The translations under genes were made by a program, and so were the position numbers. From an uncultured Candidatus Cloacimonadota bacterium (GTDB lineage: Bacteria > Cloacimonadota > Cloacimonadia > Cloacimonadales > CAYQPF01): DNA of 36,014 nucleotides. The stretch is taken from NCBI GenBank assembly GCA_964419225.1, contig CAYQPF010000035.1, forward strand, positions 1 to 36,014. The letters run 5' to 3'. Every line of letters starts with the position of its first letter. The first letter of the stretch is position 1. This document shows positions 2,750-34,570 of this stretch, piece by piece. Under the pieces are notes generated by a model. That model worked only from the letters and a program-made list of their open reading frames with translations, was not told where the DNA came from and did not search any database.

Positions 2750-3766
2750 TTATTTTTGTTTTACAAAATAAATAGTGAAGGAAGTACCTTCATCTTCTTT
2801 AGATTCTACTGTGATTTTGGCATGATGCAGTTCCACCAGTCTTTTAACAATAGAGAGTCCCAGTCCGGTTGTAGCTTCACCGGATGTACCTTTTCTGCTT
2901 GCTTTGGTGAATTTATCAAACAAATGGATCAAGTTTTCGTCAGGAATTCCGATACCTTCATCTCTGATTCTTAAGGCACAATAAGTATTTCCTTCTTCAT
3001 CCACATGATCAAAGATTTCATAGAAAATATTAGCTTTTTTCTGACAGAACTTAACAGCATTAGTTGATAGATTTTCTACAATTTGCCAGAACCTGTCAAC
3101 ATTAAGCATGACGAAATCATCCTGAGATGAATATGTAAAATGCACTTTCAGAGCTTTCCGGCTGGCAATAATCTTCAAATGATTCTCATACGTTTTAATG
3201 ATCGCTTGTAAAGAATGACTGCTCAATTCCAAAGCAAAATCTGTATGATCAATTAGATTTGTATCCAGGATATCATTCACGAGTCGGATGGCTCTTTCAC
3301 TGGATTGATTGATCACATCAATATATTGTCTCAGATTCTCATTCAAATCTTCCAGCATGATCAGATCAACCACGGAGTGTATTCCGCCGATAGCACCTCT
3401 TAAATCATGTGAAACAATGCTGAGGATAGAGTCTTTAGTCTTATTCAGATTCAGAAGTTCATCTCTCTGGATCTTCATTTGGTCCAGAATATTCTTCAAA
3501 TCGAAATCCTTGAGTTTGAGAATTTCTTCATCTTTTTCTTTGAGGGATATTTCATATTTTGTCTGCATATCATGCAGTTCATGATTATATTGTTCGGCAA
3601 AAATCCTGCTGTTCAGTTCGTTCAGTGCCTTTTGATGCTCAATAGCCTGTAGATATTGTTTGTGGGTGATATAATAATCTGTAATTTTTGCCAGCAGTTT
3701 TGCTCTGTCTTTCAAGTTCTTTTCAGCTTGCAATTGATGTAATAACTCGTTGATGTGTTTGTCCAT
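2750..3766 (-). CDS. Cytoplasmic sensor histidine kinase (coiled-coil N-terminus, HisKA + HATPase_c), with no receiver domain and no transmembrane segment
   Basis: H-box 'SHDLRGAIGGI' is present. ATPase G-boxes read 'DEGIGIPDE' and 'GTGLGLSIVKRLVELHHAKI'. The ORF is 338 aa. Confidence 0.85.
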   Translation of the reverse strand: MDKHINELLHQLQAEKNLKDRAKLLAKITDYYITHKQYLQAIEHQKALNELNSRIFAEQYNHELHDMQTKYEISLKEKDEEILKLKDFDLKNILDQMKIQRDELLNLNKTKDSILSIVSHDLRGAIGGIHSVVDLIMLEDLNENLRQYIDVINQSSERAIRLVNDILDTNLIDHTDFALELSSHSLQAIIKTYENHLKIIASRKALKVHFTYSSQDDFVMLNVDRFWQIVENLSTNAVKFCQKKANIFYEIFDHVDEEGNTYCALRIRDEGIGIPDENLIHLFDKFTKASRKGTSGEATTGLGLSIVKRLVELHHAKITVESKEDEGTSFTIYFVKQK

Positions 3767-5515: not shown

Positions 5516-6670
5516 CTATGGTTTGACAAATCTGCCCAGGAAAAGAATAGAATTGGTTTCATTATCCATAATTGCAAAGAGGAATGGGTGATCTGCTTTG
5601 AAAGTAATAGGATCAGGTGGCAAGCATTTAGCCATATTAACAGCAGTAGCAGCTGCAGCTACTGTCTTTTTTTCATCAATTTTCAATGCAGTTTTATGGA
5701 TAACTTTTGATATAAAAAGTCTTTCGTCTGAAATTCCTGAGAAGTCTGCTGAACCAAATGCGGTAACTAATCCCATCTTAATAAGAGGTTTCTTAAGATC
5801 ATATTCCATTTCCAAATCAAATTTTGGCAAACTTAGATGCACAATACCAGGTATCCCAGAACGCTTGGGGAGAATCTGTGCATTTATTACGTTCTCTAAA
5901 GCCTGTAAACCATCATCATCTCTAGGTAAAAAAATATACAGAGATTTTGTTCTGTTTTTATAAGGTATCTCTATAAATTGATATTCATCCGTTTCATAGT
6001 GGAAATAATTTGAGCTATCTACCATAAAATTCATTTTTACAGTCTCATTTTTAGATACTTTAAAATCATCTAAATGTGTAAGTGTTGTGTCAAAGCTTTT
6101 GGCCCATTCTCCACTGAAATAAACAGCATTTGTGAGAACCAGACTTGTAGCCTTTGGATTCAGATCATCCGGTTTAATCAATTCCTTAATCATATTGTTT
6201 GTTTGGGATAAAACCCATTTATTTATTATTTCTGCTGACTCAACATTCTTTCCAAAGTTCAAGGATTCAGCCTTTGCCTGATAATTGACATTCAATAATT
6301 TTCTGTAGTCAGGTTTGATCTTAAAACCATAATTGAACCAGATAGCATTAGCAATTGTAAGCTGATTATCTTTATCTGTGGAATTACTCAACTTCATCAA
6401 TTGCTGTCCAAGTCTTTCAGAGGTAAAATGCTTGTTAAGATACAGAACTTTTTCGAATTCTTTTCTGGTTTGTTTTCTGGCACCTTCAGCAGTCATTAAC
6501 AGAGCTATATCAATACTCAGAGGCGAGAAGAAAAGGTTTTTGCCATCCTCTTTCAACTCATGATACAAATCAAAGGAAAACCTGTTCAGAGAGCTACCCT
6601 GAGAAATTGTTTGAGCAAATAAACTGCAACTCATTGTTATTAAAATCAGGCCTAAAATTTGAAACCTCAT
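5516..6670 (-). CDS. Secreted serpin (serine protease inhibitor)
   Basis: N-terminal signal peptide. Serpin hinge/RCL reads 'EKKTVAAAATAVNMAKCLPPDPITFKADHPFLFAI' and aligns to the alpha1-antitrypsin RCL and 'PF(L/V)F' C-terminal block. SD GGAGG lies 5 nt upstream of the ATG. Confidence 0.85.
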   Translation of the reverse strand: MRFQILGLILITMSCSLFAQTISQGSSLNRFSFDLYHELKEDGKNLFFSPLSIDIALLMTAEGARKQTRKEFEKVLYLNKHFTSERLGQQLMKLSNSTDKDNQLTIANAIWFNYGFKIKPDYRKLLNVNYQAKAESLNFGKNVESAEIINKWVLSQTNNMIKELIKPDDLNPKATSLVLTNAVYFSGEWAKSFDTTLTHLDDFKVSKNETVKMNFMVDSSNYFHYETDEYQFIEIPYKNRTKSLYIFLPRDDDGLQALENVINAQILPKRSGIPGIVHLSLPKFDLEMEYDLKKPLIKMGLVTAFGSADFSGISDERLFISKVIHKTALKIDEKKTVAAAATAVNMAKCLPPDPITFKADHPFLFAIMDNETNSILFLGRFVKP

Positions 6671-7514: not shown

Positions 7515-8266
7515 ACCAAAGAAGCCGAGAATATAAGACCCGGGTTATTGTTTTACGCAAGACCTTGTTCAAGGAGAGCAGCTATGTATTGGAGTTGCTG
7601 TCGGACGATCTGGGAAAGATCCCGGCATTGGTCAAAGGTGCCAGAGGTGGTAAATCTTCAGAACCGGGCAAATTTGAGATCCTCAATATTCTAAGTGTCA
7701 TTTTGCATAAAAGTCCTGATGCTGAAATGTATCTCATCAAATCGGCTGATTTCGAGAAGAGTTATTTACTGGAGGCTGCCTTCAAAAAATCCATCCTCAT
7801 GCAGGCAGGTGCCGAAGTGCTCTTGCAGTTGGAAATAGCTATGGAAGACAGAACCAAGTTCTTTCTGTTATTGGAAACTTATCTGGACTATTTAAGAAAA
7901 AGTGATAAATATTCTCCACAAATATTCTGGAGATTTCTCTTGAGAGCTTTCGAATTCTCCGGAATCGAACTCGCTCCCAATACTTGCAGTGATTGTCAAA
8001 AAAGTAAAATCCCGATGAAAATCTTCAATTATCCCAACCGTTTTCTCTGTGCAGAATGTGCAGCTCAAATCCTCAGAAAGCCGGACTTTTCCTTCTCACC
8101 CAAAGTCGGTGAAATTTTTGCCGGCATCTATGATTTAAATAAAACTGACTCTGTTGACAGCCTGGGCAGGGTTGTCATCGACGAAATAAATAATTTTCTA
8201 CTGGAAGTATTTAAAGAACACTTCCATCTGAAACTGCACTTACGGAGCTTCGGTTTATGGACCTGA
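7511..8266 (+). CDS. recO: DNA repair protein RecO
   Basis: N-terminal OB-fold block reads 'RVIVLRKTLFKESSYVLELLSDDLGKIPALVKGARG'. C-terminal Cys4 zinc motif reads 'CSDCQK...CAEC'. The ORF is 251 aa. Confidence 0.8.
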   Translation: MNQRSREYKTRVIVLRKTLFKESSYVLELLSDDLGKIPALVKGARGGKSSEPGKFEILNILSVILHKSPDAEMYLIKSADFEKSYLLEAAFKKSILMQAGAEVLLQLEIAMEDRTKFFLLLETYLDYLRKSDKYSPQIFWRFLLRAFEFSGIELAPNTCSDCQKSKIPMKIFNYPNRFLCAECAAQILRKPDFSFSPKVGEIFAGIYDLNKTDSVDSLGRVVIDEINNFLLEVFKEHFHLKLHLRSFGLWT

Positions 8267-10833
8267 TCATTTCCCATATCAATTGTGATTTCGATGCTCT
8301 GGCTTCCATGTTGGCAGCAAGCCTGTTATTTCCTGAAGCTCAAATGTGTCTCGTGGGATCCACAGAGCAGACTGTTAAACTCTTTTTGGAAAGAAACAAC
8401 AATAGATTCAATTTTCTTAAGGAAAAGAACGTTAAACTTTCAGAAGTCAAAAGAGTTATCACTGTTGATAACAGAGATCTGGACCGGATGGGAAAAATAG
8501 GCGAATTTCTAACGTTACATCCTTCTATTCCTGTCCTGGCTTTCGATCATCATCCGGAAAGCAAGAATGATGTTAAATCCACTTATTCACACGTGGAACT
8601 AACCGGAGCCTGTACAACGATTATGTACCAATTACTGGAAGAAAGAGGCATATTGATAGATAATTTCACAGCATCTCTATTTGCTTTGGGGATCTATGAA
8701 GATACAGGACATTTTCTGCATGCTAATACAACTGCCAAAGATATGTTCATTGCCTCCAAACTGCTCTCACAAGGTGCATCCTTGAATTTTATCAATAAAT
8801 ATCTGCACCCGAATCTCTCCCAGAATCAACTTGTTATCCTCAACTCTATGATCAATTCGGTCGAAAACCTTACGGTAAAAGGAATTGAATTTGCCATTAC
8901 TGCCCTGGAGCTGGATCATTATCAGGAAAATATCTCCTATATGGTGCAGATCTTTCAGCGTACAGAAAAGCTGGATATGGTGATCTGTATGTTTCATTAT
9001 GGCAACAAAACGACCTTGATCGCCCGCAACAGGTATGATTTTCTGGACATTGGCTTAGTAATGAAGCAATTAGGCGGAGGTGGACATAAGTCCGCCGGTT
9101 CAGCCGTTATCAACAAAAAAGATAATAATGAACTCAAAACAGAGATTCTGGCCTTAATATCTGCTCAGATTGAGCACAATGGTACAGCAGCAGATATCAT
9201 GACCTCATCTGTAGAAACAATCCCCTCAAGTTTATTGCTCGCAGATGCTCTGGATGCTCTGACCCATAAAAAATACAGTTCCCTGCTTATCGCAGACAAT
9301 AATATTCTCAAAGGTTTAATCACAAGTAAAGATCTTACCAAACTTGCCCAGCACAGGATGCTGAATCTGCCGGTTGAAAACTTCATGACTACCAATCTGA
9401 TCATAGTCTCGCCCGATACTTCCATAATCAAAATCAAACAGCTGATTCTGGAAAACAGTATTGGCAGAATCCCAGTTGTTGAAGGTGGTCAATTGAAGGG
9501 AATAATCACCCGGAGAGATATCCTCAAAGGCAAACAAATTCAAATCAAAGAAAGTCAGTTTGTGGATAATATTACTAATCTGATGAAAAAGCAGTTTCTG
9601 CCTGAGCAAATGACCTTACTCGGCAAGATCGGTTATGTGGCAGAGTATCTGAATATGAAGGTTTATCTTGTGGGAGGAGTTGTCCGCGATTTACTCTTAG
9701 CTCAACCCAATCAGGATATTGATATTGTTGTCGAAGGAGATGCCATAGAATATGCCAGAGTGTTTAGTCAGAAATTCGGCAAAAGGTATGTGTATTTCAG
9801 CAAGTTCGGTACAGCTATCATTACCCTGGGTGGTTCACATAAAATCGATGTGGCTACTGCCAGAACAGAGTCCTACTCACAGCCAGGAATCTTACCTGAA
9901 GTGGAAGCGTCCACCTTGAAGCATGATCTTTACCGCAGAGATTTTACCATCAATGCTATGGCCGTAGAACTCGACTCTGCCAGATTCGGCAATTTCATCG
10001 ACTACTTCGGCGGGAGAAGAGCCTTGCAACTGAAAATCCTGAAAGTACTACATAATCTAAGCTTTATTGATGACCCCACCCGGATTCTCAGAGCTGTCAG
10101 ATTTGAGCAGAGATTTGGTTTCAGAATCGAATCAAGAACTTTGCATCTACTTAATAAAGCACTGTGTCAGGATTCTTTAAAAACTGTGGCACCTGAACGC
10201 ATCAGACAAGAACTTATTTTGGCTGCCAAAGAACAAAGACCGGAAAACTTCTTCAACCGTCTGCAGGAACTAAGTATCCTAAAAAGGATCTACCAGCCAC
10301 TCTGCTTTGACGCAGAAAAGAAAGTTATTTTCAATAATATCTTTGAGAATCTGATCTGGTTTAAGAGAAGCTTTCCTGATGATAAAACCGAGGCCTGGGT
10401 TATTTATCATTTAGGTTTGGTGCATGATTTAAAACACCGGTCAAAAGTTAAATTTAGTGATATGCTCAAGTACCCAAAAATCTTCATGAATGCTCTTGAT
10501 ACCTTGGACTGGTTTGCAGAAAAGGAAATTGTCAAACTTCAGTGTATAGAGAATAAAAGTCTAATCACCGAGTCTCTGCAAAAGTTGAGTAATGAATTAC
10601 TGCTCTATCTTTTATCCATACCTCAAGAAAACGGTTTGAAACTAAAAATAAAATCTTATCTGCTGGAATGGAGATATGTTAAACTGGAGATCAATGGCGA
10701 AGACATAAAGAAGCTTGGTATCAATGAGGGAAAAAGAGTCGGAGAATTACTCAAAGCTGTTCAGCGGGAAAAACTGGATCATGGCCTGAAAGGAAAGCAG
10801 GAAGAACTGGAATTTCTTAATCGCCTTAGATAG
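8257..10833 (+). CDS. Multidomain DHH/DHHA1 phosphoesterase - CBS pair - poly(A) polymerase/CCA-adding tRNA nucleotidyltransferase family protein
   Basis: N-terminal DHH is shown by 'HINCDFDALASM' and 'AFDHHPE'. DHHA1 is shown by 'GGGGHKSAGSA'. Two CBS-like segments lie at about aa 310-420. The nucleotidyltransferase head reads 'VYLVGGVVRDLLLAQPNQDIDIVVEGDA' and 'RRDFTINAMA'. The ORF is 858 aa. Confidence 0.8.
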   Translation: MDLIISHINCDFDALASMLAASLLFPEAQMCLVGSTEQTVKLFLERNNNRFNFLKEKNVKLSEVKRVITVDNRDLDRMGKIGEFLTLHPSIPVLAFDHHPESKNDVKSTYSHVELTGACTTIMYQLLEERGILIDNFTASLFALGIYEDTGHFLHANTTAKDMFIASKLLSQGASLNFINKYLHPNLSQNQLVILNSMINSVENLTVKGIEFAITALELDHYQENISYMVQIFQRTEKLDMVICMFHYGNKTTLIARNRYDFLDIGLVMKQLGGGGHKSAGSAVINKKDNNELKTEILALISAQIEHNGTAADIMTSSVETIPSSLLLADALDALTHKKYSSLLIADNNILKGLITSKDLTKLAQHRMLNLPVENFMTTNLIIVSPDTSIIKIKQLILENSIGRIPVVEGGQLKGIITRRDILKGKQIQIKESQFVDNITNLMKKQFLPEQMTLLGKIGYVAEYLNMKVYLVGGVVRDLLLAQPNQDIDIVVEGDAIEYARVFSQKFGKRYVYFSKFGTAIITLGGSHKIDVATARTESYSQPGILPEVEASTLKHDLYRRDFTINAMAVELDSARFGNFIDYFGGRRALQLKILKVLHNLSFIDDPTRILRAVRFEQRFGFRIESRTLHLLNKALCQDSLKTVAPERIRQELILAAKEQRPENFFNRLQELSILKRIYQPLCFDAEKKVIFNNIFENLIWFKRSFPDDKTEAWVIYHLGLVHDLKHRSKVKFSDMLKYPKIFMNALDTLDWFAEKEIVKLQCIENKSLITESLQKLSNELLLYLLSIPQENGLKLKIKSYLLEWRYVKLEINGEDIKKLGINEGKRVGELLKAVQREKLDHGLKGKQEELEFLNRLR

Positions 10834-10854
10834 TTAATGGTTAATAGTTAAGGG

Positions 10855-11118
10855 ACGCTTAATAGAACGCGGATGGCGCTGATCAGGCGGATGGTCGCAG
10901 ATCGGAGAGATATGTTAAAGACAGATATGTCAGGTAAAACTACCAAAAACTGAGTCTACAATTTTTAGGACTGACCGTAAGAGAAAGCATTTTTCAAATC
11001 GGCCCGGCATTTATGCGGAAATAAAAAAAGATGAAAACCTCTCTTTCTGTTTCGATCAATAATTTACAAATCCGCGATTAACTGCGTTTTCCGTGTTAAT
11101 CCGCGTTCTATTAAGCGT
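10855..11118. repeat. Perfect 20-bp inverted repeat 'acgcttaatagaacgcggat' / 'atccgcgttctattaagcgt' flanking 224 bp in a convergent intergenic region. It is a MITE-like or long-stem structured element.
   Basis: Arms at 10855-10874 and 11099-11118 are exact reverse complements. Nested imperfect 'gcggat'/'atccgc' sub-repeats lie just inside both arms. No ORF is inside. Confidence 0.6.
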
Positions 11119-11122
11119 CTCT

Positions 11123-14100
11123 TCATTCTTCTAATCTTACCTTACAGGCAAGGGCTTTTTCCGGCTGTCCTGCTTTTTCATACAGATCACATAAATGTTT
11201 ACCAACCGTAGTTGTATAGAGATGATCCGGGCCAAAGTATTTCTCACAGATAGCTAAGGCTCTGATATACAAAGGTTCGGCTTCTGTATATTTCCCTTGA
11301 GATTTATATATTCCTGCTAAATTGCTCAATGAACTCGCGGTTTTTAAATGTTCAGGGCCAAGTATTTTTTCGCTTATAGCCAAAGCTTTCAGGTTAAATA
11401 TCTCAGCTTGAGCAAATTTGCTTTGAATCTTAAACAAATCTGCCAGACTATTGAGTAAACTCACAGTATCTGGATGCTCTTCACCCAGAGTTTTTTCCTG
11501 GATCATTAAAGCTCTTTGATAAAGCGGTTCGGCTTTCTCATAAACTCCTTGTTTTCTGTACAGATCTCCCAGATAGTTAAGTGTTTTCGCAGTATCAGGA
11601 TGTTCCATTCCCAGAATCCTCTCCCTGATTTCCAATACTTTGAGGTATAGGTGTTCAGCCTGATCAAATTTACTCTGATTGTGATAAAACACAGCCAGAT
11701 TATTCAGGGATAATGCTGTACTGGGATGTTCTTCACCCAGAACCGTTTTCTGAATGTTCAAAGCTCTTAAATAGCTAATTTCAACCTCATCATATTTACC
11801 CTGTATATCATATAAATTTGCTAAATTGTTCAGTGTGGCTGCTGTTTCATGATGATCAACTCCCAATGTCTCTTCTCTTATTTTTAAACATCTTAGATAA
11901 TAAATCTCAGATAACTCAAATTTACCTTGCTCAGTATATAAGTGCGATAAATTATTAAGCATAGTCGCTGTTTCAGGATGCTCAGCACCAAAGACTCTTT
12001 CGGAAATTTTTAAGGTTTTCAGATACATTGACTCTGCCAAATCTAATTTGCCCTGATTCGTATATAAAATAGCCAAATTATTGATCACTCCTCCAGTATT
12101 TGGATGTTCTGAACCAAGCTTTTCTTCTAATATTTCTAAAGCCTGTAAGAACATAGATTCACCCAGGTCATATCTTCCTTGATTTACATACAGGAGTCCC
12201 AGATAATTAATAGTTAAGGCTGAGTTCACATGCCTTAATCCAAAAAGTTTCTTTTGAGTTTCCAAAGTACTCAGATAAAGGACTTCTGCTTGATCATATT
12301 TTGTCTGACAAACATACAAATATGCCAGATTTATAGCTGTTCGGGCTGTTTCCTGATGCTCGGATCCATAGACCTTCTTAAAAATATCCAAAGACTTTAA
12401 AAACAACAACTCTGATTGATCATATTTACCTTGACTCATATATAATGTAGCCAGATTATTCAGAGAAAGTGCTGTATCTGGATGATCTGAACCTAAAACT
12501 TTTTCTCTAATATTAAAGGCTGTCTGGAATAAGAGTTCAGCACGGTCATTTTGACCCAACACATAAAACATACACGCCAAAAGATTAATTGAACTTGCAG
12601 TATCCGGATGTTCTTCTCCGAGTATTCGTTTATGGATTTCCAAAGCTCTATTCAAATTTGTTTCAGCTTTAGTAAAATCATATTTTTCTGCAAAATAGTC
12701 TCCAGCTTTAGAGTAATATTGTGCAGCCTTAATCTCCTCACCCGCACATAAATAATGATTGGCGATGTCTTCAGCATTCGAATCAAGCTCTTTTGCAAAT
12801 AAACGTTCCATAGCTTGAGCCGCAAGCAAATGCAATTGTTGCAAACGTTGAGTAAGCATACGCTGATATGCAATATCCTTAATCAGCACATGTGAAAATA
12901 TGTAACTGATCTCATCAAAATTTGTCCAAACCCTCCTGCTTTTTCCAAAACTTAGATCTTCTTCAATTTCCATGCCCAACATATTAGCAAGCAATTCGGT
13001 ATTGAACTCCAATCCCAAAACACAGGCATTTTGCAGAGTTTGACGAACTCTTTCTGTTAGGTTATCAATGCGGTTACCAATAATGTCGGCAATACCGAAA
13101 GTGCTTATCAGAGTTGTATCCACAGTAATATTGTAAAATTGATCAAATTGGTTATTCTCCTTTAAATAAGCTGTCAATTGCTCAATAAAAAATGGATTTC
13201 CTTCTGACCGGGTTATTATTAATTCTAATGTTGTCCTGGGTATATTGCTATGATTCAATAACTGGCTTATCAAGTTTTTACTACCTACTGGTGTTAAATG
13301 GTTCAGATCCATAACTTCCTTCCTGAAACCTGGCAAACCTAAATCTACCTGACTGCCATCTTCATTATAACGGCAAGCACAAATGATGTGTACAAAAGGA
13401 ACTGAGTTTTCACCTAAAGCTCTAAAATATTCCAGTGTTTTTGTCTCTATCCACTGAGGATCATCCAAATGTATGATAATTGGTTTCTGCTCTGCTAAGG
13501 CTTGTAAAAAAGAAACAAAAGCATGCTTAATCTGCTCTGATCTTTTTTCCGGGGGCAAAAAACTGAATATCGAATGCTCCCACTCATAACCAAGCAGCGA
13601 AGCAATAAAAGATTCTATGCGCAAGAGTTCCTGATCTTCCTGAGCTAGTTCAGACCATGTCCTGTGGAATTTTTCCAGGTTACGCTTAATAGACTGTAAA
13701 TGTTCAGTACCAAAGTAGCTGTGAAGAATCTGTTTTACAGGTTCAAGAGATTTTTTACTGACCGGATCACAAAAAGTAAAGAACTTATGAAAGCAGGAAT
13801 CTGGAAGACCTTTTATGGCTTCAGATATGAGTCGGCTTTTACCAACTCCGGCTTCTCCTGAAACATAAACAACAGAGCTGTCCTTGGCCTTCAAGAAGCT
13901 TTGTAAAACCGATATTTCTACATCCCGCCCGGTAAATTCACTTTCGGACAAATTTAATTTCTCTGATCTGAAACCCTCCAACCGGTAAACATTGACTGGG
14001 GCAGAAAACCCTTTAAGCTCAATGAATCCAATATTCGAAAATATGTAACGATGATGCAAATCTCGTTGTAACCAAGTATCAGTAATGACCCTTCCATCTG

Positions 14101-15106
14101 CAGACTTGCTCAATAAGCGTGCAACCAGATTAACTGCTGCTCCCACTGCCGTGTATTCACGAGTATGCTTTACCCCGACAAAACCTGCATAAACATTACC
14201 ACTGGCAATACTCATAAGCAGTTTAGGAATTGTGTTAGCAACATCAAGAGCAAAACGGCAAATCCGGTCCAGGGTATTTCCCTCAGATTTAGGTAACCCA
14301 AAGAGGATAAAGCCCTCCAGTCCTTTGCCTGTCCCGTCCAGTCTGGTCAAAAAACCACTATAAGCATCCAGTTTATCATGCAGAACAGCCAAAGTTTGTT
14401 CCCACTCCTCAACAGCTATCTGACTTAGATCTACAAAGCAAAAGGCTGCATCACGGATTTCATTAGCCGGCTGCTCATTTAAAAGACGTTTATGACAGAA
14501 TTTCTCATAAGAAGCGTGGGAGAAAGGATAATCCAAACAAAGATCAGGATAAATCGTTTCTGTTTCAACTGCATTAATCCTGTCAATTTGCTCCAAAACT
14601 CCTTTTGACCAGGCGACAGCTTGTTTCGCAACTGAAAGTTGGGAGATCTCCTGTAACGGTTCGCCATAGAAAACATATTCATTTTGATACTCATTTTGAA
14701 AGATCTGCCAATTAATCATTCCGGAACTAATTGTTAACCTTACGGCTATCTTAAAATCACCGCAGGCAGAAGAAAATATTCTATGTTTCGCGAAATATTG
14801 TTCTATCTTCTTTACAACATTAACAATTCTTTCGGGTTTTCCCTCAGGAAACAAAGTACAAAAACCATCTCCGGCAAACACACTGACGAAACCGCCATTT
14901 TTCTCTACAAGATTTAAAGGATATGTAAATATTTCTTCCAGAAAACGGCTTAATTCTTCGGCTCCTCTTTTACCATGTTTACGAAATTCATTGCTGATAA
15001 CGGTAAAATCTGCTATATCAAAAAACAAAACAAAACTTTCGAAACTTCCCGAATATCTGTCATTTTCAAAACGGTTAAGAAAAAAAGGCGGTATATATCT
15101 AATCAT
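11123..15106 (-). CDS. Adenylate/guanylate cyclase (tandem class-III cyclase-homology domains) - AAA/STAND NTPase - TPR-repeat signalling protein
   Basis: Cyclase blocks read 'FFDIADFTVISNEF...FAGDGFCTLF', with a second block 'FCFVDLSQIA...'. Walker A reads 'VSGEAGVGKSRL'. At least 12 TPR_10/12-type repeats carry the recurring 'EHPDTA..LNNLA.LY..QGKY..AE' unit. The ATG at 15106 is preferred over the GTG at 15127 because an AGGGAG SD lies 6 nt upstream of it. Confidence 0.8.
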   Translation of the reverse strand: MIRYIPPFFLNRFENDRYSGSFESFVLFFDIADFTVISNEFRKHGKRGAEELSRFLEEIFTYPLNLVEKNGGFVSVFAGDGFCTLFPEGKPERIVNVVKKIEQYFAKHRIFSSACGDFKIAVRLTISSGMINWQIFQNEYQNEYVFYGEPLQEISQLSVAKQAVAWSKGVLEQIDRINAVETETIYPDLCLDYPFSHASYEKFCHKRLLNEQPANEIRDAAFCFVDLSQIAVEEWEQTLAVLHDKLDAYSGFLTRLDGTGKGLEGFILFGLPKSEGNTLDRICRFALDVANTIPKLLMSIASGNVYAGFVGVKHTREYTAVGAAVNLVARLLSKSADGRVITDTWLQRDLHHRYIFSNIGFIELKGFSAPVNVYRLEGFRSEKLNLSESEFTGRDVEISVLQSFLKAKDSSVVYVSGEAGVGKSRLISEAIKGLPDSCFHKFFTFCDPVSKKSLEPVKQILHSYFGTEHLQSIKRNLEKFHRTWSELAQEDQELLRIESFIASLLGYEWEHSIFSFLPPEKRSEQIKHAFVSFLQALAEQKPIIIHLDDPQWIETKTLEYFRALGENSVPFVHIICACRYNEDGSQVDLGLPGFRKEVMDLNHLTPVGSKNLISQLLNHSNIPRTTLELIITRSEGNPFFIEQLTAYLKENNQFDQFYNITVDTTLISTFGIADIIGNRIDNLTERVRQTLQNACVLGLEFNTELLANMLGMEIEEDLSFGKSRRVWTNFDEISYIFSHVLIKDIAYQRMLTQRLQQLHLLAAQAMERLFAKELDSNAEDIANHYLCAGEEIKAAQYYSKAGDYFAEKYDFTKAETNLNRALEIHKRILGEEHPDTASSINLLACMFYVLGQNDRAELLFQTAFNIREKVLGSDHPDTALSLNNLATLYMSQGKYDQSELLFLKSLDIFKKVYGSEHQETARTAINLAYLYVCQTKYDQAEVLYLSTLETQKKLFGLRHVNSALTINYLGLLYVNQGRYDLGESMFLQALEILEEKLGSEHPNTGGVINNLAILYTNQGKLDLAESMYLKTLKISERVFGAEHPETATMLNNLSHLYTEQGKFELSEIYYLRCLKIREETLGVDHHETAATLNNLANLYDIQGKYDEVEISYLRALNIQKTVLGEEHPSTALSLNNLAVFYHNQSKFDQAEHLYLKVLEIRERILGMEHPDTAKTLNYLGDLYRKQGVYEKAEPLYQRALMIQEKTLGEEHPDTVSLLNSLADLFKIQSKFAQAEIFNLKALAISEKILGPEHLKTASSLSNLAGIYKSQGKYTEAEPLYIRALAICEKYFGPDHLYTTTVGKHLCDLYEKAGQPEKALACKVRLEE

Positions 15107-15133
15107 AATTAACTCCCTACTTCTCACGGAAGA

Positions 15134-15159: not shown

Positions 15160-15240
15160 GGAATATGTGATTTTTAAGTTAATTGTGAGTGGTATGACAT
15201 AGCATCGTAGGGACAGGGCATGCCCTTTCTCTACATTGGA

Positions 15241-17694
15241 TTAAAACAATTTCTGCGGATTGGAGAGAATGCTTAAATACATTTTCCGGGAAGTACTCCC
15301 TTGAGAGTTTTGGGTGGAAGCTTTCAAACTGTATCTTGCAGGAAAAATACCCTGATCAAGAAAATATGTTTTTAAGGATTCCTCGAATTCAATTTTGGAC
15401 ACAGCTGCATTAGTCTCACTGACAACATTGATCCTCAAAAAATAGGTAGGATTAGTTCGCATGATTTTGATCACATCTTTGAACTTAGTCTGATAAAAAT
15501 CAGGTGCCGGATTGGTTAACTCGGGATAAGCAGAAATCGTATAATCATAAGAAAACAATCTGGTATTGGACAGGAAATAATATCCTGCTTTAATACTTCT
15601 GAAACTGAGGTATTTTTCATTCAGTTGGAAAGTCAATAAAGTAAGTTTGAACCCATCATCATAGTACAGATACAGATCTGACTGATTATTAAGTGAAACA
15701 AGAGAATCAGTCATAGGCAGGTAAATGGTTGAAGCTGATAGAGATTCCCCGAATTGATATACACAATCCCAAGCCGGGTAGTTCATCAGAATAAGGCTGT
15801 CAGTGACAATAGAAAAATCTTTGAGGTTATCCAACAAATTGACATAAGCCCCATTCGGGAGAAAACTGGATTTATTACCGTCAAAAGCAATCTCAGTAAC
15901 TTGTTGATTTTTCAAAACAAAGGACTTTTCGCTTTTTGTCAGTTTATCAAAGTAAGGTGCCATCAGTAAATAATTTTTGGCAGATAAGGCCGCTAATTTA
16001 TATGATTTGAAAACAGGATCAGAGAAGATGGGAATAACACGTTCGGTGAAATTAAACAATTGAGCATACTTTTTTTCTTTATTAAGAGCCCAGGCATAGT
16101 GAAGAGCAATTTGCTTTAAACTGTCAATAGTACCAGGAACAGAAGTTTGTAACTCTTGGAATAAGTCCACAATTTCACCGGATTTGCTTTCTTGCCGTAG
16201 TTTGCGGGCAAGTTCATTTTTAGCGGGATAATACAATTTATGGTAAGGATAATAAGCAATAATTTTACGAAGTGACTGGACCGCAAGGGTATCACTTTTC
16301 AGTTGCTGTGAACAACGGTATTTAAGCCAATAGCAATCTGCAGAAACAGAATTATCTTCAACACTACTGATAACTCCATCCAGAACCTGAATACATTTTT
16401 GGTATTCATTATTCTGGAAAAGCAGCTTCGCATTTTGCAAAGACATCTTCAACAAGAAATCCAGAGAATTGATTTCCGAACAGGACTTATTGATCTCATC
16501 TACAGTTTTTGTCAAATTTTTGGGGGAGTAGTTAAGTAAAGAAAGATAGCACTTGGCATAATTCTTATGTACAGCAAGTTGATTAGAGCTGAGAGAATTA
16601 AAAACATATCCGGCCTGAGCAAAATCACCTTGCTTGTAACATTGCTCTGCCCACATAAAGAGGACTTTTTCCTTCAAAGGTGTGTCTTTAAATTGATCTA
16701 GAAAAAAAGCATAATCTGCCAAAACAGGTACCTGCTTCGTAGAGCTGGTTTCCAATTTTTCGTATAATTCCAAGTCGAATTTCTGTTCAAAAGTGTAAAA
16801 CATAGAGTTCAAAGCAGATGCTTGAGGAAACTTGATACCGAACTGCAAATTAGGCTCCTGTTTAAAATCATTAATGGGAAAATCTAAAAGGATAGTTTTT
16901 CTAATCTGTTGCAGAATGGTCTGTAATTGACCTTCCAGTTTAATTTCACTGGAAAGGTTTGTATAAAACCCGTTAAACTTAAGGCACATTCTTTCCATTG
17001 TCGCAGTAGGTTTGGGAGCTATATCCAGAACATAGATAGATACATCTGAGTTTTTTAAAACACCAACCAGATCTTTATTGGAGACAGACGAACCATTATC
17101 TTCGCCATCAACAATGATAAAGAGATATTTATTATGAAATCGTGGTTGTTCATTAAGGTCTGCCACTGCCAGGACAAGTGCATCATTGGTATATGTTTTA
17201 TCTGTAAAAGAAGGAATATTGGCTATTTCTTTCTTTATTAAAAAAGGTGAATTGGAAAAGAATAATCTTTTACGGGTTATCAAGCTGGCTTCACTCTCGT
17301 TGATCCGGGAAATATTACGCCCATCTCCATAATCATAAAGAGACAGGTAAAAATCACTGCTAAGGCTGTCCTGAAAGGAAGTCAGAGCTTTTTGCACATT
17401 GGCATATTTATCCTTCATTGATAGTGAGTTATCCAGTACTATACTTATATTTTTTATCTCTGCAGTATTACCAAGAAATGCAGTTTTTTTAACAACTGTT
17501 CTTTCAGAATTAACTTCCAGAGTAATTTCTGACGGTTTGACTACTTTTATAAGTGATGTTTGGCCCGGAGTTAAATAAAGTCGATACAGGGAGTCTTGCC
17601 CTGCAAAAACACGTGTAACTTTATAAGGTTCGGTCTCTGCAGCAATTAAGCAAGCCCAAATGAAGAGAACAAACAACAGTATAATTTTTTTCAT
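15241..17694 (-). CDS. Secreted von Willebrand factor A (vWA) domain protein with a C-terminal TPR-like/helical region
   Basis: Signal peptide 'MKKIILLFVLFIWACLIAA'. MIDAS-type motif in 'ISIVLDNSLSMKDK...YLFIIVDGEDNGS'. The ORF is 817 aa. Its start overlaps the upstream gene as ATGA. Confidence 0.7.
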   Translation of the reverse strand: MKKIILLFVLFIWACLIAAETEPYKVTRVFAGQDSLYRLYLTPGQTSLIKVVKPSEITLEVNSERTVVKKTAFLGNTAEIKNISIVLDNSLSMKDKYANVQKALTSFQDSLSSDFYLSLYDYGDGRNISRINESEASLITRKRLFFSNSPFLIKKEIANIPSFTDKTYTNDALVLAVADLNEQPRFHNKYLFIIVDGEDNGSSVSNKDLVGVLKNSDVSIYVLDIAPKPTATMERMCLKFNGFYTNLSSEIKLEGQLQTILQQIRKTILLDFPINDFKQEPNLQFGIKFPQASALNSMFYTFEQKFDLELYEKLETSSTKQVPVLADYAFFLDQFKDTPLKEKVLFMWAEQCYKQGDFAQAGYVFNSLSSNQLAVHKNYAKCYLSLLNYSPKNLTKTVDEINKSCSEINSLDFLLKMSLQNAKLLFQNNEYQKCIQVLDGVISSVEDNSVSADCYWLKYRCSQQLKSDTLAVQSLRKIIAYYPYHKLYYPAKNELARKLRQESKSGEIVDLFQELQTSVPGTIDSLKQIALHYAWALNKEKKYAQLFNFTERVIPIFSDPVFKSYKLAALSAKNYLLMAPYFDKLTKSEKSFVLKNQQVTEIAFDGNKSSFLPNGAYVNLLDNLKDFSIVTDSLILMNYPAWDCVYQFGESLSASTIYLPMTDSLVSLNNQSDLYLYYDDGFKLTLLTFQLNEKYLSFRSIKAGYYFLSNTRLFSYDYTISAYPELTNPAPDFYQTKFKDVIKIMRTNPTYFLRINVVSETNAAVSKIEFEESLKTYFLDQGIFPARYSLKASTQNSQGSTSRKMYLSILSNPQKLF

Positions 17695-33132: not shown

Positions 33133-33669
33133 AATACCTCTCTAAATGAACTTAATTTATAGTTTCAATAGTACAATCATTGATTTATGTCAAGAAAATT
33201 GATAATTTCTTTTTGCGTGCTGGCAGAAAATTGAAAAGTGTCACAAGATTTGCAAATTTGGTCACCTCTAAAGTTGGGACTACAAGATTCCTTGTGGACC
33301 AATACAAAATAATCCATAACTTTTATTAAACTTCTACATATTTTGAATCTCTTTTTTTACTAACTTACTCTCCTGTTTTAATTTATTAACACTGTCAAGG
33401 TATAATATATTACTTTAATTTATTATATAGCAACATGTTAATTCCCCTCTATCAAGAGGGGTGGCAACGAAGTTGACGGGGTGTGTAAATCCAAAACCCT
33501 GTTTGCTATCATTAAACTTATACCATTTTTCAGATTATTCTCTTTAAACTTTGAACTAATTTCACAAACAGAATCAAGTAGTGTCCAAAATATTAACCTC
33601 CATTCGAAAAATACTCTCAGAAAAACTACTCCGTAAATAGAGTTTTCCCCAACTAATAACTCAATTCTG

Positions 33670-34092
33670 CTAATTTATAACTAACATGTGGGAGAGTTCA
33701 ATCGCTCTTGCACCAGTCTGCTTTGCCCATTTAGTAGTCAGCATCTGGTTAGCAGCTTTTTCAAACTCTCCAGATTTGACAAAACTAAGAGTGGTCTTAA
33801 ACTGCAATAGTCCTTTAATTCCAAGGTTGAAACACATATCCAGAAGCACCAGTTTACGGTTTTCTGAGAGGTTGTTGTAGATATCAGGAATGCTGGAAAT
33901 AAGCTCCAACTCACATCGCAAAATATCATTTTGAAGCAGTTCTTTGGCTTCCTGCTTTGAAATCCCTCAGTCTTCAAGATTACGACTGACTCCGATGGTC
34001 AGTTTACCTGATGTGCAGCGATACGGCTTAAGTCTCAAACCTTCATGCCTGATGAGTTGCTCTTTGACTCTAACTAATAAGCTCTGTTCCAT
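33670..34092 (-). pseudogene. T4-type (GH24) phage lysozyme gene interrupted by one in-frame TGA at 33967-33969
   Basis: The minus-strand frame reads 'MEQSLLVRVKEQLIRHEGLRLKPYRCTSGKLTIGVSRNLED*GISKQEAKELL...NRKLVLLDMCFNLG...KWAKQTGARAIEL'. This aligns along its whole length to T4 lysozyme ('[25 protein letters not shown]', 'RRCALINMVFQMG', 'SRWYNQTPNRAKRV'). GGAG lies 7 nt upstream of the ATG. Confidence 0.7.
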
Positions 34093-34322
34093 CTATACTC
34101 CAAATGTTATATTCAGAGTGATAGGAACCTGCTGCTGGTAATTTTATCAAATCGGCTTGCCTATGGATGCCACAGAAATTATCATTGACAGATGGTGTTT
34201 GCTCAGATTAATGTTAGCTAATTAAGAGCTTAAATTTGAGTCTATATTTTACGATCAAGCATGATCATATAGATATCAAATGAGTAGGAGTGGGAGGATG
34301 CATGATAAAGCTGTAGCGATGA

Positions 34323-34514
34323 TATCTATACCGCAGCTTGGTACAATGGGCTAAGCCAGCCAATGAACTATGTATATTTGATATGCACGACAACGTATGG
34401 GAGTGGAATTGGGACATTCATGGTAGCTATCCCAGCACTCAGGGTAACCAGCATAGTGCCCTGAGCAGGTCACTTAGTGCAATTCAAACGATCTATGAAA
34501 TATGCTGCAAATGA
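34323..34514 (+). pseudogene. Remnant (C-terminal fragment) of an FGE-sulfatase/SUMF1-domain gene
   Basis: A 63-codon open frame reads '...AKPANELCIFDMHDNVWEWNWDIHGSYPSTQGN...'. It matches the 'LGLYDMSGNMEEWCWDWHGKF' block of the 17..2212 protein and the canonical FGE 'YDMxGNVWEW' signature. There is no start codon and no upstream domain. Confidence 0.5.
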
Positions 34515-34570
34515 TCCAAAAAAAAGAATTGAGACTTGAGTTACGTACCTAAGTCAGAAAGGTTGGGTAG

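Follow-up and report, generated by a model that had tools for sequence, protein, structure and literature searches.

A 264-bp element bounded by perfect inverted repeats lies between two convergent genes on a contig of a MAG, and its form leaves open whether it derives from a mobile element, serves as a structured RNA or terminator, or belongs to a repeat family of another kind. A preliminary description, made from the sequence, had favored a MITE or IS remnant or an RNA whose ends pair into a long stem, and had held the element to be something other than an ordinary bidirectional terminator. We analyzed it within its window, that is, the entire 36-kb contig (36,014 nt), and compared it with related loci from other organisms.

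Architecture of the window element

The element fills the 289-bp gap between the genes for a CCA-adding or poly(A) polymerase-type enzyme and an adenylate-cyclase-like/AAA_16/TPR protein, which are convergent as had been described (Table 1). The stop codon of the former lies 23 nt ahead of the left-arm GCTT, and that of the latter 6 nt past the right-arm GCTT. For the CCA-type enzyme, the best homologs are just 46% identical, some of them labeled Cloacimonetes. The arms, first described as 20-bp repeats at 10855–10874 and 11099–11118, are exact reverse complements; counting one more paired base on either side, they reach 21 nt. None of the window shuffles reproduced a 21-nt inverted match, and chance alone would give ~5 × 10⁻⁶ such pairs at distances up to 600 nt in a 36-kb sequence. 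No other long inverted repeat of this kind occurs in the window, and inverted-repeat and arm-profile searches found no second copy there.

Each 21-nt perfect arm forms the foot of a longer arm of ~46 nt, in which three 9–10-nt units ending in (C)GGAT come after the terminal motif (GCTT)AATAGAACGCGGAT. The nested 'gcggat' repeats noticed earlier are thus periodic units, whose + strand ends fall at 10874, 10883, 10892, and 10902 (GCGGAT, GCTGAT, GCGGAT, and GCAGAT). The mirror set on the − strand follows the terminal GCGGAT (11104–11099) with units at 11098–11090, 11089–11080, and 11079–11070. ORFs inside the element do not exceed 32 aa, in agreement with the earlier reading of the interval as non-coding.

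Table 1 Coordinates of the window element and its flanking genes, and arrangements of arms around GxxExxY genes in other organisms
Feature	Position	Strand	Description
Left perfect arm	10854–10874	+	21 nt; exact reverse complement of 11099–11119
Right perfect arm	11099–11119	−	21 nt
Left-arm terminal family motif AATAGAACGCGGAT	10861–10874	+	GCTT before the motif at 10857–10860
Full left arm	10857–10902	+	GCTT, AATAGAACGCGGAT, units GGCGCTGAT, CAGGCGGAT, GGTCGCAGAT; spacing 9, 9, 10
Full right arm	11070–11116	−	GCTT, AATAGAACGCGGAT, units TAACACGGA, AAACGCAGTT, AATCGCGGAT
Core	10903–11069		167 nt, A/T-rich, non-coding, between the arms
Upstream convergent gene	8257–10833	+	DHH-CBS-PolyA_pol, CCA-adding or poly(A) polymerase-type enzyme
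Downstream convergent gene	11123–15127	−	Adenylate-cyclase-like / AAA_16 / TPR protein
Locus L050			Arm, gene, arm; gene in the loop; element ~470 bp
Locus L009			Arm, gene, full hairpin
Locus L012			Hairpin, gene, arm
Gemmatirosa			CGCGGAT hairpin directly after the GxxExxY gene
Treponema			ACACGGATTCG / CGAATCCGTGT around the GxxExxY gene
Fusobacteria ZRK30			ATCAG/ATCCG-type arms on both sides of the GxxExxY gene
Persicobacter			GGATT-unit hairpins on both sides of the GxxExxY gene
Bacteroides finegoldii			CACAGAGGA units at the GxxExxY gene, three per arm, inverted
Bernardetia			ACACAGAGA units at the GxxExxY gene
Sphingomonas			CGCGAAG units at the GxxExxY gene

A stem of this kind could have evolved locally as a bidirectional terminator, an mRNA-stabilizing stem, or a structured non-coding RNA, with RNA function as the constraint that preserves it. 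Its position between convergent genes fits such a role. So does its folding, which the preliminary description had proposed as a check: both strands fold far better than shuffles, at −96.5 kcal/mol (z −6.5) for one and −86.5 kcal/mol (z −4.8) for the other. An intrinsic terminator, however, has a short G+C-rich stem-loop with a T-run behind it, whereas the window stem is longer than 45 nt and lacks a T-run. No promoter or terminator consensus was found at the element (terminator scan of 10600–11400), and neither the window nor 10 related loci gave an Rfam match.

Three other features of the window were recorded. A 28-nt palindrome, GTAGGGACAGGGCATGCCCTTTCTCTAC, with GTAG...CTAC ends, lies at 15207–15234 between the − strand genes 11123–15127 and 15241–17694, and is a candidate REP-like element or terminator stem. 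A bacterial serpin is encoded at 5516–6670 on the − strand (PF00079, E = 9 × 10⁻¹⁰⁸), and the 1.4 kb between divergent genes at 33133–34570 contains no ORF of at least 100 aa.

The window element belongs to a dispersed, multi-copy hairpin family

Scanning the exact 18-mer GCTTAATAGAACGCGGAT through one genome per species yielded 19 loci. In ~15 of these, from at least seven phyla, the 18-mer leads into CGGAT units, giving the order 18-mer, three or four tandem units NNNCGGAT, short loop, and inverse arm. A metagenome scan added 32 loci, most with the same architecture. The sources of the 18-mer loci comprise Caldilineales, Anaerolineaceae, Blastocatellia (two contigs of one MAG), Ignavibacteria, Cytophagia and Chryseobacterium MAGs, Methylobacter (three species), Hydrogenedentota, Geobacteraceae, and an unclassified gammaproteobacterium. 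The arm architecture is shared by Chloroflexota, Acidobacteriota, Ignavibacteria, Bacteroidota, Methylobacter, Hydrogenedentota, Geobacteraceae, and Gemmatimonadota, where copies are usually hairpins of 93–130 nt. Among 22 distinct complete elements from other organisms, most measure 93–147 nt and four 190–254 nt.

The consensus of 56 arms, all from organisms other than that of the window, reads (GCTT)AATAGAAC[G/A]CGGAT-gAcACGGAT-tnaaCGGAT-TtaCaCGGAT, with the same unit spacing as the window element. The foot AATAGAAC(G/A)CGGAT is present, exact and inverted, on both window arms (10861–10874 and 11112–11099), and the profile built from the 56 arms matches the window solely at 10858–10902 (E = 2.2 × 10⁻⁹) and at 11116–11069 on the − strand (E = 9 × 10⁻⁸), covering 46 nt per arm. 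Statistics on the conservation of the terminal word are partly circular, since the loci were found with the terminal 18-mer; the gene-first retrievals described below are independent of it. The window element thus belongs to a dispersed, multi-copy family of hairpins. Its arms recur in multiple copies in many genomes as a dispersed, non-coding inverted-repeat element, which bears out the earlier view that it is no ordinary terminator. No description of the family was found in Rfam 15 or in the searchable open-access literature, and its motif is not listed in the REP surveys therein; it is apparently undescribed.

Copy number is high in places, with two to three hairpins per 3–9 kb in several Methylobacter-like contigs of one metagenome and tandem hairpin pairs at three loci (L014, L045, and L067). 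Within a genome, copies are 51–78% identical; they therefore appear old, with no sign of recent transposition. The hairpins favor the 3′ ends of genes, with 8 in convergent, 16 in tandem, and 1 in divergent context (p = 0.007), and at two loci (L009 and L019) the GCT TAA of the motif is the stop codon of the host gene. Many relatives also carry a T-rich run after the distal foot. Both the enrichment at 3′ ends and these T-rich runs speak for an RNA or terminator function. On the other side, RNA folding shows no strand bias (14 vs 8 of 22 elements, p = 0.14), the genes beside the hairpins are functionally unrelated to one another, and RNA function alone would leave unexplained both the identical 14–18-mers with the same unit architecture across phyla and the specific partnership with a nuclease gene described below. 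The structured-RNA alternative of the preliminary description found no support, and we consider a locally evolved RNA or terminator element very unlikely as the origin; a secondary role as an RNA 3′-end barrier is compatible with the explanation that we prefer.

The other earlier proposal, a classical MITE or IS remnant, would make the element an IS deletion derivative moved by a DDE or HUH transposase through its terminal inverted repeats. Part of this stands: like MITEs, the window element is short, non-coding, and bounded by inverted repeats, and it belongs to a dispersed family, which is multi-copy in other genomes. The part that concerns transposition fared poorly. There is no target-site duplication at the window element (flanks TTAAGG and TCTTCA), and 27 complete relatives show no consistent direct repeat. 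No transposase-sized ORF or kb-scale element was found between family arms, and no transposase was present in the best 25 of 136 Pfam families from 84 neighboring ORFs. Unlike MITEs, the hairpins have no related IS or transposase, and their inverted repeats span nearly the whole element. The sole gene found between the arms is that of a 125-aa nuclease; gene-bearing relatives carry a PD-(D/E)XK GxxExxY nuclease gene in place of an IS transposase. We regard an IS-derived origin as highly improbable. A phage or viral origin was also rejected, with no match to the 18-mer in viral contigs and none to GxxExxY in phage records. The DnaA box, CsrA sites, dif, and the Tn3 inverted repeat showed partial resemblance only and had no contextual support.

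For one Methylobacter copy, the flavin-dependent oxidoreductase gene beside it was compared with orthologs of 85–93% identity, whose downstream regions were not syntenic. Mobility is therefore inferred from dispersal only, this comparison having lacked synteny and no insertion polymorphism or empty site having been recovered.

Further repeats accompany the hairpins in these genomes. In three Methylobacter-type hairpins, a 26-nt mini-palindrome, GCCAAAAGTAGGCGCYTCTAGGCGAC, directly follows the first CGGAT unit (L017, ~3630–3660; L020, 720–745; L032, ~2095–2125) and looks like a second, smaller insertion element. Every GCTT-type hairpin in Methylobacter-type genomes is nested in an outer palindrome, GTAACTATTCAGCG...CGCTGAATAGTTAC (L011 778–939, L017, L020, L027, L029, L030, and L049). 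At L011 the outer arm supplies the stop codon of the adjoining oxidoreductase gene, whose 3′ end differs from those of its orthologs. In another methanotroph contig, the orthologous oxidoreductase gene is followed by a REP-like hairpin with a GTAG tag, GTAGGATGTGCCGA...TCGGCACATCCTAC (L074 2430–2540), so the same position is taken there by a different repeat family. Hairpins of other units follow CGGAT arms at three loci (L022, L046, and L050), with GGGGAGT/CCCCATT in L022 and CATCCCG-like units in L050, which suggests that tandem-unit hairpins are a broader phenomenon.

GxxExxY genes and hairpins form cognate pairs

Pfam annotation of the 84 ORFs within 1.5 kb of family elements revealed PF13366 (PDDEXK_3) as a recurrent neighbor, its three members ranking second only to response-regulator domains (four). 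All three proteins bear the NCBIfam name 'GxxExxY protein' (TIGR04256), and all three genes lie between family arms (L050, L009, and L012; Table 1). We also retrieved 14 GxxExxY loci independently of the 18-mer, from Anaerolineae, Gemmatimonadota, Fusobacteriota, Spirochaetota, Bacteroidota, and Alphaproteobacteria; in 13, the gene ends bore inverted arms or hairpins composed of such units. Flanking inverted-repeat scores reached at least 31 in 7 of 14 GxxExxY genes, compared with at least 30 in 2 of 91 control genes (p = 5 × 10⁻⁶). At five loci (L050, L065, L070, L071, and L072), the gene sits exactly at the loop position between two arms.

The GxxExxY gene is co-oriented with its neighbors in all annotated cases, often in operons (fabD–fabG, pyrB–pyrF, radA, and ade). 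Its Anaerolineae orthologs, 72–89% identical, all occupy the interval between a pyrB-like gene and pyrF, and each is bordered on both flanks by family hairpins. At L052, the GxxExxY stop codon TAG belongs to the AATAGAAC of the next arm, and the gene start (RBS and ATG) and end share a direct repeat of 12 nt, AAGGAGAAAATA (2486–2500 and 2861–2875). In plasmid and secondary-replicon records, tblastn detected GxxExxY in eight cultured organisms from six phyla; no plasmid copy of the window element itself was found. Arrangements of arms around the gene are listed in Table 1, and the Prevotella gene had no recognizable arms or hairpins.

The unit sequence varies by lineage, with CGCGGAT, CACAGAGGA, CGCGAAG, and GGATT among its forms. 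CGCGAAG arms occur on seven records of Sphingomonas parapaucimobilis and CAGAGGA arms in 14 Bacteroides records, six of them in one 24.8-kb record, while Gemmatirosa has 17 CGCGGAT-type places (on two megaplasmids) and 39 CAGAGGA-type places. Gemmatirosa plasmid 1 encodes two GxxExxY paralogs, at 437 kb and 994 kb. The former is nearer the Anaerolineae protein and has a CGCGGAT hairpin beside it. The latter is 48.6% identical to the protein of Bacteroides, where arms are of the CAGAGGA type, and was predicted to have CAGAGGA-type arms; CGCAGAGGA arms and a hairpin indeed flank it. The hairpin family is thus specifically associated with GxxExxY genes, in cognate pairs, and such a one protein–one repeat pattern defines RAYT–REPIN systems (PMC3116915).

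Two details of this plasmid were noted separately. The 994-kb paralog (L083 601–956; plasmid 1, 993801–994156) aligns in two pieces, which suggests a frameshift, whether in a possible pseudogene or through sequencing error, and the same plasmid 1 record holds a third GxxExxY-like place.

The GxxExxY protein has ~125 aa. Across 28 sequences, D66, E76-L-K78, and the glutamates E27 and E31 of the GxxExxY helix are invariant. An AlphaFold model (pLDDT 88.5) has the topology alpha-alpha-beta-beta-beta-alpha-beta-beta, and Foldseek placed it among PD-(D/E)XK nucleases at a TM of ~0.5, nearest to Cas4 SSO0001, lambda-exonuclease-type enzymes, and MGME1; a search by sequence found no solved structure. 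From conserved residues and predicted fold, the protein is plausibly an active nuclease. PF13366/TIGR04256 is very large, with more than 8000 members among the matches listed. A 2012 survey of PD-(D/E)XK enzymes gave PF13366 as 'Unknown', with multiple horizontal transfers (PMC3424549), and elsewhere in the searchable literature 'GxxExxY' has incidental mentions only.

Origin of the window copy and possible modes of spread

The window copy departs from its relatives in several respects. It measures 264 bp, against ~100 bp for usual members, and carries GACGCTT at both ends, whereas all 22 other elements lack AAGC at the distal end. In typical relatives the arms are separated by a short A/T-rich loop, in gene-bearing ones by the GxxExxY gene, and in the window element by the 167-nt core; large cores also occur in three relatives (L012, L037, and L042). 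A decayed GxxExxY gene in this core was considered and rejected: a six-frame profile search gave negative scores throughout, tblastn found nothing in the core and no GxxExxY gene in the 36-kb window, and similarity to other collected loci was confined to chance A-rich words.

On balance, the window element is probably a gene-less, non-autonomous, and likely old copy of a nuclease-partnered family resembling REPIN/RAYT systems. Each arm of a family member combines the conserved foot with three or four tandem 9–10-nt units around a CGGAT core, and pairing of the two arms gives a long hairpin, in RNA or in single-stranded DNA. The partner of the family is the GxxExxY nuclease, its gene enclosed or flanked by cognate arms; in the organism of the window, such a partner is putative. 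The nuclease may recognize the repeated units in the folded arms and cut near the conserved foot, and such cutting, together with host repair functions, might copy or maintain the hairpins. Gene-less copies such as that in the window would be non-autonomous; at its present locus, the element most likely acts only passively, by placing a long stem at the 3′ end of each convergent transcript.

Likeness to REPIN–RAYT systems (PMC3116915, PMC5581495) extends to several features. The repeats are ~100-nt extragenic palindromes that form long hairpins in many diverged copies per genome, sometimes in tandem. The partner is a small, low-copy gene flanked by repeats and tied to its own repeat family, and it is inherited vertically at a fixed locus, here in Anaerolineae. 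In contrast to RAYTs, which are HUH/Y1 transposases (PF01797), the partner here is a PD-(D/E)XK hydrolase (PF13366). A REPIN arm is one 20–40-nt REP palindrome with a GTAG or CGTC tag, two of which stand inverted, whereas the arms described here consist of three or four tandem 9–10-nt units that are not themselves palindromes. Moreover, REPs are lineage-specific, whereas the terminal motifs of the CGGAT subtype are nearly identical from phylum to phylum.

Other known systems share some of these traits. Intervening sequences in 23S rRNA that carry a small ORF (Coxiella burnetii, S23p; PMC4990558) are likewise small, selfish-looking cassettes, with a ~120-aa ORF in the loop of a long terminal-inverted-repeat stem inserted in sense in a host transcription unit. 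GxxExxY cassettes differ in occupying intergenic spacers of mRNA operons and not rRNA helices, in encoding another protein family, and in the abundance of gene-less hairpin copies. Integron attC sites are imperfect palindromes that directly follow or overlap the stop codon of a small ORF and have AAC/GTT triplets at their feet. The window feet, ATAGAAC/GTTCTAT, match AAC/GTT only and not RYYYAAC/GTTRRRY, and family copies have tandem-unit arms and stand isolated between unrelated genes, with no same-orientation arrays and no integrase context.

The main rival to the REPIN/RAYT-like reading is homing, in which a selfish gene of the homing type uses the hairpins as landing pads or leaves them as scars. 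The GxxExxY protein would act as a free-standing endonuclease that cuts the loops of gene-less hairpins, its gene being copied in by recombinational repair; gene-less hairpins, the window copy included, would be uninvaded targets or remains after gene deletion. PD-(D/E)XK homing endonucleases exist, I-Ssp6803I being one. The exact loop position of the gene at the five loci named above fits this scheme, as does its co-oriented insertion inside operons, and the direct repeat at L052 could mediate gene loss. However, the Anaerolineae orthologs are fixed at pyrB–pyrF and diverged to 72% identity with catalytic residues intact, which looks more like a maintained single-copy gene than a cycling homing gene. 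Homing would also leave the spread of gene-less hairpins to new sites unexplained, and the window core holds no gene remnant. We consider this scheme unlikely.

A broader proposition, which we put forward tentatively, is that GxxExxY genes and their cognate tandem 9-nt-unit hairpins make up an unrecognized class of selfish or domesticated element in many phyla, in which a hydrolytic nuclease drives the copying of palindromes. Copying could proceed in two ways, with hairpins either serving as homing targets or being excised and reinserted. The nuclease would then be a minimal PD-(D/E)XK enzyme in place of a DDE or HUH transposase, with the window element as a non-autonomous copy. Because PD-(D/E)XK enzymes hydrolyze DNA without rejoining it, host factors would be required for a transposase role.

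The link between PF13366/TIGR04256 and the hairpins yields a hypothesis that can be tested at the bench, namely that the protein binds or cuts structure-specific DNA made of the repeat units. If this is true, partnerships of the REPIN–RAYT type extend beyond HUH transposases, which would add to the routes by which palindromic repeats are known to fill bacterial intergenic space. Recognizing GxxExxY-linked repeats would also improve the annotation of MAGs. Many GxxExxY proteins are known solely from contigs of 0.5–2 kb, a pattern consistent with end repeats breaking metagenome assemblies; since so many of the genes lie on very short contigs, recognized repeats would help explain assembly breaks.
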